NCBI GenBank assembly: GCA_947652325.1 | Contig: CANTCQ010000001.1 | Span: forward strand, 198,725 to 262,724 | DNA: 64,000 bases | DNA from: an uncultured Mycoplasmatota bacterium | Lineage (GTDB): Bacteria; Bacillota_I; Bacilli_A; RF39; UBA660 | Direction of reading: 5' to 3' | Shown: piece after piece, positions 20,144-41,561 of the stretch | How the letters are laid out: every line of letters begins with the position of its first letter | How positions within the stretch are numbered: the first letter of the stretch is position 1 | Notes under the pieces: generated by a model | Databases searched by the model: none | What the model saw: the letters and a program-made list of their open reading frames with translations, nothing else | Told to the model about the DNA's origin: nothing | Translations under genes and position numbers: made by a program

Positions 20144-20174
20144 TTGACAGCGTGGGGGGGGGGTAAGTTATAAT
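20144..20174 (+). promoter_or_regulatory. promoter with a G10 tract in the spacer (TTGACA-19 nt-TATAAT)
   Basis: The -35 TTGACA is at 20144-20149, the G10 tract at 20154-20163 and the -10 TATAAT at 20169-20174, 27 nt upstream of the ATG at 20201. Confidence 0.7.
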
Positions 20175-20200: not shown

Positions 20201-21853
20201 ATGAATGATAAAGCTATAGAATTTGAAACTACTATTTATAAAGTAAAAAGCTCTTTAACTCGTTTAAAAAAAATAGGTTTACGTATAGAAAAATATGAGA
20301 GATTGGTAGATGAGGTTATAGAAACCTGCAACAAAGAAACTGATTATAATATGGAAAATGTTTTTGGAGCAGCTGAGAATTTTTCAGAAGGTATGTTAGC
20401 AAATAGTTACATAAAAGCAATAAGTAAATTGGAGAGCATATTTTTAGAATTAAGTAAGTATGAAATTTATTTAAAAGTTGCGGCTTTTAATCAAATATTA
20501 AAGGAATTTTTAAATTCTAAAAATAAAGAGAAGATAAAATTTATTGAATTAAAAGACCAATTAAGGGGTTTATTAAATGATTTAAAAAAATCAGGAACAT
20601 TGGATTATCAAGTAGAAGGGGCTTTAGTAGAAGATATTTATTTTTTTACTTATCAACTTATACAAGAAGAAATAAAATGTTTTGGAACGAGTTCACTTTT
20701 AAGTGCTTTGAAACAAGATGAGATTCATAAATACAATTTGGATAAACAAATTCGTAAAGAATTGGAAACGTTAAATTTGAAAAAAGAGAAATATTCTTTA
20801 TTGAAACTTCGAAAAAATGAAATAGATACTCAAGAAGGCCTTCATGCTACTTATTTAGAAGAATACTTTATTTTAAATTTAATGAAAGCGACCATGAGTG
20901 AGCAAGATAGACAAAATTTATTAGAAGAAATGGCCTATGAGATTACCTTTGCTTATAAACAAGCAAAAAATATTGAAAAGGATATAGATAAAAATCGAGA
21001 GAGTATAACTGAAAATAGTCAAAAAATTCAAAAGTATTTAAAAAAAATATACAAAAATATAGCTTTATTTGCCACTTCTGCAAGTATAACTGCAGGATTA
21101 ATTACAGGAAGTTTAACTTTAGGAAAAAAGTGGGCTTGTGAAAAAAAGTACAATGTGACAACTTATTCTTTTAGTTCTATAGATGGAGAATTGCCAATAA
21201 AGACAGAAAAGTCTTATTCTATTGAAAATACTATTCAATTATATGAATATAAACCTTTTAAAGAAGCAGATAGTTTTAATTATTATACGAGAACTGTAAA
21301 CACTTTTGATTTAAGTTCTTTAAAGGAAAGGAATTTAGAGGATTATCTAAACATAAATTTAGAAGCATTAAGAACTATAGTTGAAACAGGTTATGACTAT
21401 AAAGAGAATTTAAGTGTAAGTGATTTATACCAAGAAACACTTTTTATTGTAGAAAAAAAAGTAACAGATGAAGAAAATGTAGAAATAACGTACAATGCGT
21501 TTTCGCATGTTTTGATTTTTCTTGATTTTCTAATAATTGATGTTTTGATAGAATTAATACTGGCAGTGGGAATAGCAAAGATAGAAAATAGAAAATATTT
21601 AGAGTGGAATCTTCTTTCGTCTTTAAGAAAAATGATTGTTACATATAGAAAGATAATTGTCCAAAAGCAAAAAATAGCAAATACAGAAGAAGAACTTAAA
21701 AATTTAGATTTGGAAATGAAAAATTTATTTTTAGAAAATAGAGATTTGTTACAGAAAATACCAACTCTTCTTACTGTTTTTGAAGGGGAATCAAATTTTA
21801 GGGAAGAAGTGGAATCTATAAAAAAGAATTTATCTCGATTTCTTAAATTGTAA
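20201..21853 (+). CDS. hypothetical membrane protein with coiled-coil regions
   Basis: There are two hydrophobic segments (IALFATSASITAGLITGSLTLG and VLIFLDFLIIDVLIELILAVGIA), and the N- and C-terminal parts are coiled-coil-like. Confidence 0.5.
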   Translation: MNDKAIEFETTIYKVKSSLTRLKKIGLRIEKYERLVDEVIETCNKETDYNMENVFGAAENFSEGMLANSYIKAISKLESIFLELSKYEIYLKVAAFNQILKEFLNSKNKEKIKFIELKDQLRGLLNDLKKSGTLDYQVEGALVEDIYFFTYQLIQEEIKCFGTSSLLSALKQDEIHKYNLDKQIRKELETLNLKKEKYSLLKLRKNEIDTQEGLHATYLEEYFILNLMKATMSEQDRQNLLEEMAYEITFAYKQAKNIEKDIDKNRESITENSQKIQKYLKKIYKNIALFATSASITAGLITGSLTLGKKWACEKKYNVTTYSFSSIDGELPIKTEKSYSIENTIQLYEYKPFKEADSFNYYTRTVNTFDLSSLKERNLEDYLNINLEALRTIVETGYDYKENLSVSDLYQETLFIVEKKVTDEENVEITYNAFSHVLIFLDFLIIDVLIELILAVGIAKIENRKYLEWNLLSSLRKMIVTYRKIIVQKQKIANTEEELKNLDLEMKNLFLENRDLLQKIPTLLTVFEGESNFREEVESIKKNLSRFLKL

Positions 21854-31909: not shown

Positions 31910-31948
31910 TTGACAGTGGTGGTGGTGGTGGGGGGGTTAAGTTACAAT
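31910..31948 (+). promoter_or_regulatory. promoter homologous to 20144-20174, with a (TGG)n repeat running into G7 in the spacer
   Basis: The -35 TTGACA is at 31910-31915. The sequence G(TGG)4TGGGGGGG spans 31916-31936. The -10 TACAAT is at 31943-31948, giving a 27-nt spacer. It shares TACTTGACAG..GGGG(T)TAAGTTA.AAT with the 20144 promoter. Confidence 0.6.
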
Positions 31949-31978: not shown

Positions 31979-33382
31979 ATGAATTATAAAGTAGAAAATA
32001 AATTTTATGATAAAATAAAACAAAAGGTAGTAGATGGTATTTTTATAGAGGGAAAAAATTGTAGATTTAGTAGATTTGAACAGGATAAGAGTTTGCCTAA
32101 GCATTACGCTTATTTAATGCAATATAAGAATTTTAAATTTAAAGATGTACCAAAAGAAGCACAAACAAAAGAATTCTTTTTAAACATGTTTACGTATAGT
32201 GATGTTTTTAATTATATTAAAAGTCATATAAAAGAGTTTGATAGGCAATTTTTTAAAGATTTGATTACTACTAATCCGTTTGCCTTAACACTTGATAATA
32301 ATTGTTTTTCTATTATTCCAATTGAATATATTGATGAAGAAATGTGTTCTTTAGCTATTTTACAAAATAAAAATTGGTGCGACTATACGTGGTTTTATTT
32401 AGTTGTAGAAAGAAAACCACAAGTGTTAACAGAAGATTTATGGAAATTAGGAGCTCGGTTGTATGCAAGAGAAGTGAATGGTAAAAATAAATTTTTAAGT
32501 ATAACGCCTGAAAAGTATAAAGATTATGAATATTATTTAGAAATGTGTAGTTGTAATTTTAATGAAAATTGTCCATTGGATACTAATAAAGGTCATATTA
32601 TAGACACTATTCCTAAAGAAATTCTTTCTCTACGTTTTGTTTTAGATTTGTTAAAAATAGATATTCAAAGTGTTGCTAGGTTTAATGAGCAAATGCTAGA
32701 GATGAAAATTCCGTATTGTGAAGAAACTGAAAAAATATGGCAGTTTGTAGTACGACATGTTGGAGAGACAATACGGAATATAAAACTAAACGAAGAAAGA
32801 ATAGAATTCTTTTTAAGACATTATGCCAAAGATTCTCATGAATACATTTGGTGTTTTAAAAATAATTTTAAGAGATATTTAAAAAAGAAAAGAAATCTAG
32901 AAGCTCTAAAAAAGACAGAAGAAAGAACCCGAAATTTTTTGGAAAATACCTCAAAAATGGCTCTGAACGGTATTAATCAGAAACTAAAGCAAGGAGAAAA
33001 TCCAATAGATGCCATTAATGATACTAATCAATTGCTTAGGCCGTTTGAAAAATCGTATAGTATTTCACAATTACCCATCAAGTATGAAGGAGAAGTTCCT
33101 ATAGAATTTCGTAAACAATTAGATACAGAAGAGTATTTACAAATGTTTTATAAAAAAATCGGCGTTCAAATTATAGAAGAGGAGGATAATCTTTTTTATA
33201 GCGTAGTGGTGCCAGAAGGTTGGAGCGAAGAAAATGATGGGTGCTGGTGCTATGTAAAAGATGAAAATGGGAATCCTGTGATAGATTATGTTTATCAAAG
33301 CGTATTTTATGATAGAGATGCCTATGTAAAAAGGGTTTATTTATCAAAGTTAGAACAAGAAGAAAATCGAGGTCGAAAGTAA
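31979..33382 (+). CDS. hypothetical cytoplasmic protein with DUF4116-like helical repeats
   Basis: Segments of the type IP.E(Y/I)..EEMC..A(I/V).. recur. No signal peptide is present. The RBS is AGAGGGGG. Confidence 0.5.
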   Translation: MNYKVENKFYDKIKQKVVDGIFIEGKNCRFSRFEQDKSLPKHYAYLMQYKNFKFKDVPKEAQTKEFFLNMFTYSDVFNYIKSHIKEFDRQFFKDLITTNPFALTLDNNCFSIIPIEYIDEEMCSLAILQNKNWCDYTWFYLVVERKPQVLTEDLWKLGARLYAREVNGKNKFLSITPEKYKDYEYYLEMCSCNFNENCPLDTNKGHIIDTIPKEILSLRFVLDLLKIDIQSVARFNEQMLEMKIPYCEETEKIWQFVVRHVGETIRNIKLNEERIEFFLRHYAKDSHEYIWCFKNNFKRYLKKKRNLEALKKTEERTRNFLENTSKMALNGINQKLKQGENPIDAINDTNQLLRPFEKSYSISQLPIKYEGEVPIEFRKQLDTEEYLQMFYKKIGVQIIEEEDNLFYSVVVPEGWSEENDGCWCYVKDENGNPVIDYVYQSVFYDRDAYVKRVYLSKLEQEENRGRK

Positions 33383-38452: not shown

Positions 38453-38524
38453 TTTCTTTTTTCATACCTTGAAAAGAGATAAAAAGATGTAGTATAATTG
38501 AATAATAATAGAGGAGGAAAAAAG

Positions 38525-40956
38525 ATGGAAGAAAAGAAAAATTTCCCAACTAGAAAAAGTGTGGGGGGGGGATATTAGATAAAAAGTCCCTAAATAGTCT
38601 AGAAAAGAAAATATTTTTAATTATAAGTATTTTATGTTTTTCAATATTAATAGTAGGAATAACATATGCGTATATAGCATATTATACAAATCAAAAAGGA
38701 ATCAATGTGTTAGAAACAGATTGTGTACATATAGATATGGAAGATTTAAGTGAAGGAATAAGTCTAAGAAATGCTTACCCCTTAACAGATGAACAAGGAT
38801 ATAATACAAAACCATATCGATTTCGTATAACAAATACATGTAATATAGGAGTAGATTATAATGTAAATATAGAAGTATTTGATATAGCAAATAGAATGTC
38901 TAGTAAAAATGTAGCAGCAAAAGTAGACGAGTTTGAAAAGAAAATATTGACAAGTGAAATAAGTACAACTCCTACTTATACTGGAGATGAAGGAACATCA
39001 ATAGAGAGTTATAATGTATATACAAATACACTTTCACCAGGAGAAAGTAAAAGTCATGATATAAGAATATGGTTAGATGAGAGTGCAGGAAATGATTCTC
39101 AAAATAAAGAATTTAAAAGTAAAATAGTAATAGAAGCAATACAAAATCAAATAGCGCAGATGACATTTAGTGAATATATTATAGACCAAAGCAAGTCACA
39201 AGATAGAGGAATAGAGAGAATAGAACATGAAGCAACAGAACAAATTCCGGCTTTAACGGATTATAGATATACAGGAGCAAATCCAAATAATTATGTATAT
39301 TTTGGATGTAGTGAAAATTGTACAGAAGAGAATCTATATCGAATTATAGGAGTAATACCAACACAAAGTAGCGAAAATGGAGCATATGAAAACCGTGTAA
39401 AGTTAATCAAAGCAAGTGAATATATTGGCCCTAATGCTGAGGATGGTTCAAGATTTACTCCAAGTGGAAAAGGATATAAATGGAATGCAGATGGAAATAA
39501 TAAATGGGAAGAAAGTACATTAAAAGAAGAGTTAAACACAGAATACTGGAATAGTTTAGAAGAATATCAAAAATATATAGAACCTTCAAAATGGTATTTA
39601 GGGTCTCCACTTGGTGAGAAACAATCAACATATACTTCTGAACAATTTTATAAAGAAGAGCGAAGCAAAACGCCAGGATATAGTCAGGGAGCAATATCCT
39701 ATATAGATAATATAGGATTAATGTACCCAAGTGATTATGGCTATTCACTAGAAAAAAAATATAGAGAACCATCTATTTATGAAAACGAATTACATTATAG
39801 GAGTCAAGCATGGCTATATAATATGGAAGAAAAATATTATGAATGGACAATAACTCCAGAAAATACAAGTCAGGATTTTGTAAAAGTGTGGGTAGTCGAT
39901 AAACAAGGAAGAATAGATTATTATCGAGCTTATTATGATAATTATTTATTTATTGCCCGACCAACCTTTTATTTAAAGAGTAGTATAATGTATGGGGGAG
40001 GATTAGGTACAAAAGAAGAACCATTTCAAATAATAGAAAATTCCAATCGAATGAGTGATTATATAATAGCAAAAAGTACAACCGATGAGACAATAGAAAA
40101 AGTGAGTCATGAAGCAACAGAACAAACTCCGACTTTAACGGATTATAGATATACAGGAGCAAATCCAAATAATTATGTATGTTTTGGCTATGAAGGAGAA
40201 AGATGTCCAGATGAAAATTTATATCGAATTATAGGAGTAATACCAACGCAAAGTAGCGAAAATGGAGCATATGAAAATCGTGTAAAGTTAATCAAAACAA
40301 GTAATTATGTAGAAAATGAGAGTGGTTATTTAGAAAATAGTATTGGTCCTGCTACTCCAGAAGGAACAGGTTATCGTTGGAATAAAGATGCTAATATTAA
40401 TAATTGGGAAGAGAGTTCATTGAATACTAAAGTTTTAAATAATATATATTGGAACTCTTTAGGAGAATATCAAAAATATATAGAATCATCAAAATGGTAT
40501 TTAGGTTCATTAAACAATGATATGTATGAATTATATACAGTAGGAAATTTATATAATGTAGAAAGAAGCAATGTTTCTTCTTATAGTGGTGGAGCAACAT
40601 TCTACATAAGTAATATTGGTTTAATGTATCCAAGTGATTATGGATATTCCATATCAAAAGAATATTGGAATAATAATAGTATAAGTAATTATCAAAATGA
40701 ATATATAAAAAATGCATGGTTATATAATTTAAGTGGTGGAGAATACGTAGAATGGTTGATTTCTGCTTCACATGATTTTCCAAATGGCAGTGTTTCTGCA
40801 TGGAATATTGGATATACTGGAAATATTTGGGGAGGTTTTAGTGTAATTTATTTTGCTCAAGTGTATGCAATACGTCCTACCTTTTATTTGAAATCTAGTG
40901 TATTATTTCGAGGAGGAGAAGGAACAATAGATAATCCTTATTATTTATCAATATGA
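38525..40956 (+). CDS. phase-variable surface-anchored protein with two tandem modules of about 294 aa, currently frameshifted at a G9 tract
   Basis: The ATG at 38525 follows a GGAGGA RBS. With G9 the reading frame stops at 38576-38578. One extra G joins it to the long ORF (track entry 38707-40956), which is open back to 38572 and encodes the signal anchor KKIFLIISILCFSILIVGITYAYIAYY. Confidence 0.7.
38563..38571 (+). repeat. homopolymeric G9 tract inside the 5' coding region
   Basis: The nine G residues were counted directly from the sequence. Confidence 0.95.
39226..39420 (+). repeat. near-identical internal direct repeat, copy 1 (partner at 40108-40300)
   Basis: CATGAAGCAACAGAACAAA.TCCG.CTTTAACGGATTATAGATATACAGGAGCAAATCCAAATAATTATGTAT and TATATCGAATTATAGGAGTAATACCAAC.CAAAGTAGCGAAAATGGAGCATATGAAAA.CGTGTAAAGTTAATCAAA are shared with copy 2, 882 nt downstream. 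Confidence 0.85.
40108..40300 (+). repeat. near-identical internal direct repeat, copy 2
   Basis: See copy 1 at 39226-39420. Confidence 0.85.
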
Positions 40957-41135
40957 TAGATATAAAAACACTTCGGAAGAGCAGAGGGTATACACAAAAA
41001 GAATTAGCTGCAAAATTGGGAATTAAACAACAACAATATGCAAGATATGAAAGTGGAACTACTAAAATTTCAGTATCTATGTTAGAAAAAATATTAGATA
41101 TCTGTCAATATAAAATGAAAATTGTGAAAAAATAA
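40953..41135 (+). CDS. XRE-family helix-turn-helix protein (60 aa)
   Basis: The HTH motif is RKSRGYTQKELAAKLGIKQQQYARYESG. The start forms an ATGA overlap with the stop of the surface-protein gene. Confidence 0.8.
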   Translation: MIDIKTLRKSRGYTQKELAAKLGIKQQQYARYESGTTKISVSMLEKILDICQYKMKIVKK

Positions 41136-41228
41136 AATTATCAAAGTAGATAATTGCTAATAATTGGTGTTTTGTCATAAGCACCATTTTTTTTATGGCA
41201 TAAAATAGACTAGAAAGGAAATGGTAAT

Positions 41229-41561
41229 ATGAAAAATAATCGTTGTATGGATACAAGTATGTTTCCTGAAACTAATCAAACAACTACGGAAACAAATATA
41301 AATGTTGAAATGGGTATGGGAATGCCTGGAATGATGGGAATGGGTTGCTCATGTCCACCTCAATCTATGATGTGTCCACCTGTTATGGAATGTCCGCAAG
41401 TTAGATGTTGTCATAGAGTTATTAATTATGAAGTACCTCATATTATTCCTTGCCATACAAAAATGATTAATCATCATGTTTATAGACATACTTATCAACC
41501 ATGTTTTAGTTATTCAGAAGAAGACGAATGTTCTGAAGTTTATGACCAAAAATGTTGTTAA
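41229..41561 (+). CDS. Cys/Met/His-rich protein, CotD-like spore coat protein
   Basis: VINYEVPHIIPCHTKMINHHVYRHTYQP resembles the VPHIHP.HT..VNH..F.H motif of Bacillus CotD. The N-terminal half is rich in MGMGMPGMMGMG and Cys. Confidence 0.55.
   Translation: MKNNRCMDTSMFPETNQTTTETNINVEMGMGMPGMMGMGCSCPPQSMMCPPVMECPQVRCCHRVINYEVPHIIPCHTKMINHHVYRHTYQPCFSYSEEDECSEVYDQKCC

Follow-up and report, generated by a model that had tools for sequence, protein, structure and literature searches.

How does a gene for a large, probably surface-located protein tolerate a run of nine G residues that throws its first codons out of frame with the rest of its coding sequence? We address this question for a locus in a 64,000-nucleotide (nt) stretch of contig CANTCQ010000001.1 (the window, whose numbering is used throughout) from an uncultured Mycoplasmatota bacterium of the RF39 lineage. 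The gene starts with an ATG at 38525-38527 and runs after 12 codons into a G9 tract, beyond which a body of 794 codons lies in another frame. We find that the tract has natural in-frame and out-of-frame alleles and that G runs recur at the same position across a large protein family. We propose, with a probability of about 0.8, that this is a slipped-strand phase-variable (contingency) locus in which the length of the poly-G tract gates translation.

The G tract, its alleles and its family

The leader ATG follows a GGAGGA Shine-Dalgarno sequence at a spacing of 6 nt, and its 12 codons are succeeded by GTG GGG GGG GGA TAT TAG. As read in the G9 allele, the leader frame gives MEEKKNFPTRKSVGGGY, 17 codons before the stop. 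A sequence-only reading of the window had placed the start, the ribosome-binding site (RBS), the tract and the stop in this way, and all of these coordinates proved right. The 749-amino-acid (aa) open reading frame (ORF) downstream lies in a different frame from the leader, and its first canonical start is GTG 38707. The same reading had taken this frame to be open back to 38572; the difference in frame stands, but the frame opens farther back, at 38554, behind a TAG at 38551-53, and inspection for start codons found no ATG, GTG or TTG between 38554 and 38707. When the tract is edited in silico, adding one G yields an 810-aa product and removing two yields an 809-aa product. Both repaired products begin MEEKKNFPTRKSVGG(G)ILDKK... 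and include a hydrophobic segment, the longer form of the repaired N-terminus being MEEKKNFPTRKSVGG(G)ILDKKSLNSLEKKIFLIISILCFSILIVGITYAYIAYY. That G10 and G7 alleles would join leader and body had thus been correctly foreseen, except that the G7 product carries GG and not GGG. The tract spans codons 13-16 and is in frame as G7, G10 or G13. Because of these reading frames, and because no other canonical start precedes 38707, the presence of the protein would be tied to tract length.

The mechanism that we propose is the following. Translation from ATG 38525 would produce a full 810-aa membrane-anchored or secreted protein, and replication slippage, by gain or loss of G residues, would bring the leader into the frame of the body or out of it. 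Tracts of G7, G10 and G13 would give the full protein, and tracts of G8, G9 and G11 would lead to a stop after 17-19 codons. With G9, the gene would be OFF in the majority population of this assembly and one G insertion away from ON. The rate and reversibility of switching, the loss of protein in the OFF state, the surface location of the product and a polar effect on the helix-turn-helix (HTH) gene downstream are parts of this model that we infer.

Natural alleles of the tract were found by searching a large protein collection with the repaired protein. It matched P0001, which is 100% identical and 809 aa long and belongs to a cluster of four members, two of 809 aa (P0001, P0122) and two of 749 aa (P0121, P0123). 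The four member contigs come from four independent European Nucleotide Archive (ENA) metagenome assemblies of one species. One of them, L004 (NODE_18, a 279-kb contig at 19x coverage), is 100% identical to the window and is its source. The tract is G9 and out of frame in this contig and in L006, and G7 and in frame, with an 809-aa product, in L001 and L005. Its immediate surroundings (45 nt on the 5' side and 30 nt on the 3' side) are identical except for one downstream substitution in L005, and the flanks are 99.6-99.9% identical among the four assemblies. Over 4.4 kb the strains differ by 4-15 single-nucleotide polymorphisms (SNPs): the two G9 strains are 10 SNPs apart, and the two G7 strains, nearest to each other, are 4 apart. 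No allele has further stops in the 794-codon body, which is intact throughout. In-frame and out-of-frame alleles are both present, then, within flanks that are otherwise conserved, and the comparison of strains that the sequence-only reading had proposed reveals a tract that is not fixed, with G9 in two assemblies and G7 in two. As assembled, natural strains differ in tract length, and a functional in-frame allele is among the variants. A scan of Joint Genome Institute (JGI) metagenome contigs for the exact flanks with a variable gap gave 0 matches for this locus. A generic leader pattern, CCTCCCAAC...CTG8+, was rejected as a probe of the JGI contigs, since 46 of 46 matches were unrelated and lay mostly on contigs rich in guanine plus cytosine (GC).

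The run itself is beyond chance expectation. The window has a GC content of 27%, and G9 occurred in 0 of 100 dinucleotide-preserving shuffles, which excludes chance as its source. Only four runs of at least six G are present in the 64 kb, on the + strand in every case. In this genome GGG makes up 8.9% of Gly codons, a usage at which three consecutive GGG codons are expected in about 0.07% of Gly triplets; since so few Gly codons are GGG here, the run appears to be under selection and maintained. Among homologous leaders of the type 'xLPTxxxxLGGGIL', 14/14 carry an uninterrupted run of at least seven G. The shuffles, the bias against GGG and these leaders agree in giving the over-representation and conservation that mark a contingency locus.

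To what extent is such a tract a property of the protein family? A family scan with one genome per species returned 79 loci (588 matching stretches overall). Nearly all 79 are from metagenome-assembled genomes (MAGs) titled 'uncultured Tenericutes bacterium' or 'uncultured Bacilli bacterium', from the guts of mouse, rabbit, deer, chicken and human (Hadza) hosts. There are often about ten family copies per MAG, many of them at contig ends. The 466 kb of family loci contain 25 runs of at least seven G, all on the coding strand of the family gene and none on the opposite strand, in two contexts: leaders, or TTGACA...TATAAT spacers 5' of family genes. In the leader context a good RBS is immediately followed by a short leader that contains the run. 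For instance, one leader reads ATG AAA AAA ... ATC CTC CCA ACT TCA GGA ACT GTC CTG-G10-TAT and encodes MKK..ILPTSGTVLGGG(I/Y)L..., followed by a basic stretch and a hydrophobic helix. In the promoter context the run lies in the spacer and the N-terminus is intact (L036, L041 twice, L083, L060, L080, L138/L141). Two further regularities of the 25 runs are a sharp length peak, with exactly G10 in 17, and a TAT directly 3' of the run in 19, in leader and promoter-spacer contexts alike.

Paralogues and orthologues of about 50% identity have a pure G8-G11 run at the equivalent leader position, and the leader peptide, read in the ON frame, is conserved on both flanks of the run. One database protein, P0053, has GEG at this position, which suggests that an interrupted, presumably locked version is possible but rare. 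A few family leader tracts are in frame, namely those of L001 and L005 (G7), L048 (G8), L138 (G9) and the leaders of P0010 and P0018. Most are out of frame: the window, L006, L002, L003, L014, L019, L020, L022 (two loci), L027 and L029, together with L069, L076, L077 and L139-L141. One human-gut orthologue has G9, G10, G10 and G11 across four samples, with the same aminotransferase gene as its neighbour in L138, L140 and L141 and ruvA in L139. In this human-gut relative the neighbour 3' of the orthologue, another small anchored-protein gene, has a promoter-spacer tract as well, TTGACA-8 nt-Gn-T-TATAAT; it is G13 in L138 (2231-2243) and G10 in L141 (2146-2155). Because tract lengths differ between samples in the human-gut orthologue (G9-G11) and in promoter tracts (G10/G13 here, and G8-G10 at a promoter of the window described below), poly-G runs in this lineage are demonstrably length-variable at the level of assembled sequence. 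The family-wide run, together with the natural G7 and G9 alleles of the window's own locus, supports the earlier proposal that the G9 allele is OFF and that the gene is phase-variable.

Weighing phase variation against other explanations

Several points weigh against a phase-variable locus. Only two tract lengths, G7 and G9, are represented among the four assemblies. Because G7 is confined to two sister strains, one -2 deletion is enough to account for all four alleles, and a switching rate is not derivable from them. An assembly is a consensus sequence, and the three contigs other than the window's source are at 3-5x coverage. Illumina sequencing miscalls G tracts, and database tract lengths can be wrong (PMC9187656). 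In the wider family, tracts of the ILPT type (named for a leader motif) are exactly G10, and OFF by +1, in 9/10 cases, a peak that is sharper than simple drift predicts.

The last of these points bears on the explanation that survives best after phase variation, although we consider it improbable: RNA polymerase or ribosome slippage at the run would give a constant full-length fraction, with the tract setting dosage. A run that fills the 9-bp RNA:DNA hybrid is prone to slippage, as established for A/T runs (PMC1088944), and the G9-G11 runs reach this length. In addition, G_GGG_GGA conforms to the X_XXY_YYZ pattern, out-of-frame alleles predominate in the family and the ILPT tracts peak at G10, and the run of ILPT leaders is predicted to take part in a stable hairpin. 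However, the natural in-frame alleles (L001, L005, L048, L138, P0010, P0018) mean that not all homologues share the frameshift, the DNA itself shows the length differences, and the hairpin is missing from other leader classes and lacks covariation. The shift that would rescue the reading frame is -1 (or +2) for the window's G9 and +1 for most G10 loci, and it differs again for the G10 of L002 and the G9 alleles of L069, L076 and L077. Because the required shift differs between loci, random length change is favoured over one programmed recoding event; a single programmed ribosomal frameshift was rejected on the same ground and because in-frame alleles exist. Transcriptional slippage may coexist with slippage at the DNA level as leakiness of OFF alleles.

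Could the tract be in frame in reality, and the gene intact, with the G9 a homopolymer error of sequencing or assembly? G tracts are hard for Illumina chemistry (PMC9187656) and the window comes from a metagenome assembly, but two samples independently yielded G9 and another two G7, the window is covered at 19x, and the alleles differ by 2 nt. Moreover, no genes are split at the many A8-A9 and T8-T9 runs of the window, and out-of-frame tracts recur at about 15 loci from different studies and assemblers. We therefore regard an error as very unlikely. A decaying pseudogene, in which a homopolymer indel has no adaptive role, is slightly less credible still. Such decay would agree with the loss of frame in both G9 strains, which are separated by 10 SNPs per 4.4 kb, and with a family whose members are mostly out of frame. 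It does not agree with a body that is intact in every allele, with in-frame alleles in sister strains, with a pure run kept across paralogues of ~50% identity despite the bias against GGG, or with a leader peptide whose ON-frame sequence is conserved before and after the run.

Least probable of all is independent initiation at GTG 38707, or at a near-cognate codon just behind the run, giving an anchor-less or alternative product whatever the tract length: a weak AGGA sits 6 nt 5' of this GTG, gene callers picked it, and another subfamily has a TTG just 5' of the run in a second frame, yet the AGGA is explained by coding (the nucleotides near 38707 encode the conserved motif QKGINVLE), the body frame lacks ATG, GTG and TTG upstream as far as 38554, the homologues all begin 5' of the hydrophobic helix, and an ectodomain with conserved Cys pairs and predicted lectin-like and beta-sandwich folds would be unlikely to function in the cytoplasm. 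Phase variation by slippage at the DNA level thus remains the explanation that we favour.

The encoded protein, its leader and its neighbours

The positions of the switched gene and of the elements around it are collected in Table 1.

Table 1. Elements of the candidate phase-variable locus, in window coordinates
Feature	Position	Strand	Remarks
Promoter-like TTGAAA-18 nt-TATAAT	38469..38498	+	11/12 consensus matches, best site of the region; consensus match only
Shine-Dalgarno GGAGGA	38513..38518	+	Equivalent GGAGG precedes the leader ATG at homologous loci
Leader ORF of the G9 allele, 17 codons (MEEKKNFPTRKSVGGGY) and TAG (38576-38578)	38525..38578	+	
C-rich box TTTCCCAAC, degenerate copy of the family box ATCCTCCCAAC	38542..38550	+	Pairing with the G run predicted
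G9 homopolymer, putative slippage-prone switch	38563..38571	+	G7 in L001/L005, G9 in L006
Gene body, 794 codons and TGA	38572..40956	+	Joined to the leader only if the tract is in frame
Predicted N-terminal hydrophobic helix, residues 25-47	38599..38667	+	AlphaFold model and homologue N-termini; membrane anchor or signal peptide
GTG, first canonical start in the body frame	38707..38709	+	Product without anchor; gene-caller start in G9 alleles (P0121, P0123)
Beta-sandwich domain, residues 69-206	38731..39144	+	Weak Foldseek matches, E about 1e-2
Repeat domain 1, residues 229-503, alpha/beta	39211..40035	+	pLDDT 96; PDB match 9qa6
Repeat domain 2, residues 523-808, copy of the fold of repeat domain 1	40093..40950	+	
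60-aa XRE-family HTH gene	40953..41135	+	ATGA overlap with the stop codon of the switched gene
Intrinsic-terminator-like hairpin and T run, end of the two-gene unit	41165..41196	+	

Searches of Pfam and NCBIfam and a sequence-profile search of PDB with the switched protein gave nothing usable, and its architecture was read from structure prediction. In an AlphaFold model built from 90 homologues (predicted local distance difference test, pLDDT, 88), residues 1-23 are disordered and the predicted helix that follows ends in the family motif GITYAYIAYY. This N-terminal anchor is common to the family: P0004-P0007 and many other homologues start 5' of the hydrophobic segment, which bears out the earlier remark that the ORF called from GTG 38707 lacks the anchor. 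The pattern ...G(I/V)(S/T)YA(Y/W/L)... resembles the motif of SipW-cognate (TasA/camelysin-type) signal peptides; the NCBIfam scan at E<=1 gave no match to the model of such a signal peptide.

Behind the helix, the model has a beta-sandwich and then two copies of a ~275-aa alpha/beta domain. With the full-length model, Foldseek returned weak beta-sandwich matches only, and the sandwich has a weak likeness to CBM3 modules and chaperone-usher pilins. The isolated repeat domain has a sole significant PDB match, 9qa6, an IgA peptidase of Thomasclavelia ramosa (E 5e-7, query-normalised TM-score, TMq, 0.49, 312 columns). This peptidase has a 290-residue enlarged C-type-lectin-like N-terminal domain (PMC12237041), which is the likely counterpart of the repeat domain, since the two agree in size and in secondary-structure make-up. 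The predicted architecture would fit an anchored or secreted binding protein. Because the model combines a predicted transmembrane (TM) helix with extracellular-type folds, a surface location may be supposed and 'surface protein' is reasonable as a putative label.

The switched gene has a small partner. Within the sequence ATGA (40953-56), its TGA stop and the ATG start of a 60-aa XRE-type HTH gene overlap, and the same small HTH gene lies directly 3' of about 20 family loci, overlapping or abutting the family stop in L008-L014, L021, L023, L028, L030, L035, L051, L056 and L073. As judged from this arrangement, the two genes form a conserved cassette in which the HTH gene would be translationally coupled to the switched gene. 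Given the ATGA overlap and the terminator after the HTH gene, the switch probably also lowers expression of the XRE regulator through a presumed polar effect. The cassette adjoins a gene for a 110-aa Cys/Met/Pro-rich protein (MGMGMPGMMGMGCSCPP...; 41229-41561) in 4/4 strains. This protein weakly matches the CotD family of spore-coat proteins, its E of 1e-3 falling short of the cut-off, and its gene is followed by pilin-like (N_methyl) and DUF2779 genes.

On the other side of the tract, leaders of the ILPT class contain a C-rich box, ATCCTCCCAAC, 13-20 nt 5' of the G run (leaders L014, L019, L020, L022, L027, L029, L037, L002 and L003), of which the window has a version (Table 1). Two codons of the box are rare, ATC accounting for 5.8% of Ile codons and CTC for 0.7% of Leu codons; the codon next to the run in ILPT leaders is CTG, which accounts for 1.5% of Leu codons. 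ATCCTCCCAAC matches the anti-Shine-Dalgarno core CCUCC exactly and is complementary to the run as well as to the RBS. Hairpins between box and run are predicted at -20 to -25 kcal/mol in the ILPT class, with z down to -4; the predicted hairpin of the window, formed by TTTCCCAAC, is weaker, at -11.5 kcal/mol (z = -2.2). RNAalifold found no covariation in support of the hairpin in the ILPT class, where its 8 pairs are essentially invariant, and the C-box hairpin is absent from the other leader classes. We do not claim the hairpin as part of the mechanism, for its pairs lack covariation and other leader classes do without it; since those classes have no box, the C-box is not required for switching.

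Poly-G runs in promoter spacers also occur elsewhere in the window. At 20145-20174, the sequence TTGACA-GCGT-G10-TAAGT-TATAAT, with a spacer of 19 and its G10 at 20154-20163, stands 5' of ORF 20201-21853, which encodes a 550-aa coiled-coil/TM protein without a family match. Within the window's species its length varies: against the G10 of the window, three Logan assemblies have G8 (spacer 17) and two others have G9 (spacer 18). We suggest that this is probably a transcriptional phase-variable or rheostat-variable promoter. A second such module at 31910-31948, with G7 at 31930-31936, precedes ORF 31979-33382, which encodes a 467-aa protein, again without a family match. Its flanks are homologous to those of the first module (TTGACAG(T/C)G...Gn-T(T)AAGTTA(C/T)AAT), and (GGT)4 together with the G7 lengthens its spacer to 27 nt; because of this length, the promoter is probably inactive as it stands. 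Both ORFs were considered as members of the switched-protein family and rejected (BLASTP E > 0.2).

Taken together, these elements allow a broader and much more tentative proposal, which we hold to be possible but on balance doubtful: a lineage-wide modular system of paralogous anchored lectin-like proteins, individually gated by two interchangeable poly-G cassettes and in many cases coupled to an XRE gene. The leader cassette would consist of an RBS, a leader of 13-17 codons, a rare-codon C-box complementary to the run, Gn and TAT; the promoter-spacer cassette would be TTGACA-Gn-TAT..TATAAT. With many family genes translationally coupled to a small XRE repressor, one flip of a tract would change a surface protein and also reprogram transcription, much like a transcription-factor 'phasevarion'. 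Cross-repression could then give mutually exclusive expression, and the C-box hairpin could tune slippage or translation.

Relation to known systems

Phase variation through homopolymer tracts is already well known from such pathogens as Campylobacter, Neisseria, Haemophilus and Mycoplasma and has been demonstrated in Bifidobacterium; the lineage and the gene family are new. In Mycoplasma, a relative of the Bacilli, families of surface lipoproteins are switched individually by homopolymer length, for example through the poly-A promoter tracts of vlp in M. hyorhinis. The vlp system combines poly-A in promoters with lipoproteins that contain tandem repeats, whereas the tracts described here are poly-G, and Pfam and NCBIfam scans found no sequence relationship to the variable lipoproteins of Mycoplasma. 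We found no specific report in the literature of poly-G phase variation in RF39 or in uncultured Tenericutes/Bacilli gut lineages.

The family matters for annotation as well as for biology. Gene callers truncate these genes (749 versus 810 aa) or split them, and a probable surface-protein family is consequently mis-annotated in MAG catalogues. Tract lengths in metagenomes could serve as a population record of the surface variants that are selected in the host. Finally, the family offers an entry point to the host, phage or glycan interactions of organisms that have not yet been grown.

A close parallel is found in the pilus clusters of Bifidobacterium breve UCC2003 (bbr_0113a/b, bbr_1889a/b), which likewise belong to a gut commensal, have G10-G11 tracts and are split in the reference allele (PMC9187656). 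In B. breve an operon for a surface structure carries the run in its first gene, a change of one G in either direction fuses two ORFs, and an effect on the downstream genes is expected through lost translation (PMC9187656). The locus described here differs in its 27% GC and in a run that is placed in a 13-codon leader ahead of the anchor; it also belongs to a large multicopy family with a small XRE partner, whereas the B. breve system is a pilus operon in a high-GC genome.

In a second comparison, Campylobacter jejuni and Helicobacter share with this lineage a low GC content and over-represented G8-G11 tracts that vary between strains (PMC8355987, PMC8437040, PMC2823697). There too the runs are 5' in surface-related genes or intergenic, and the many loci constitute a phasome. 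The differences are that we are dealing with uncultured Bacilli, with a single family of paralogous, anchored proteins that have lectin-like domains and not with glycan-modifying enzymes, and with a conserved leader cassette that is reused across paralogues.

Lastly, Neisseria meningitidis employs both modes of switching, with poly-G inside the ORF in hmbR and hpuAB and poly-G/C in the promoter spacer in porA and opc (PMC3786947, PMC3639595). Our lineage resembles it in combining runs that would switch an ORF with runs in -35/-10 spacers (20154 in the window; L036, L041 and L083). Unlike in Neisseria, however, both modes act within one protein family, in related species.

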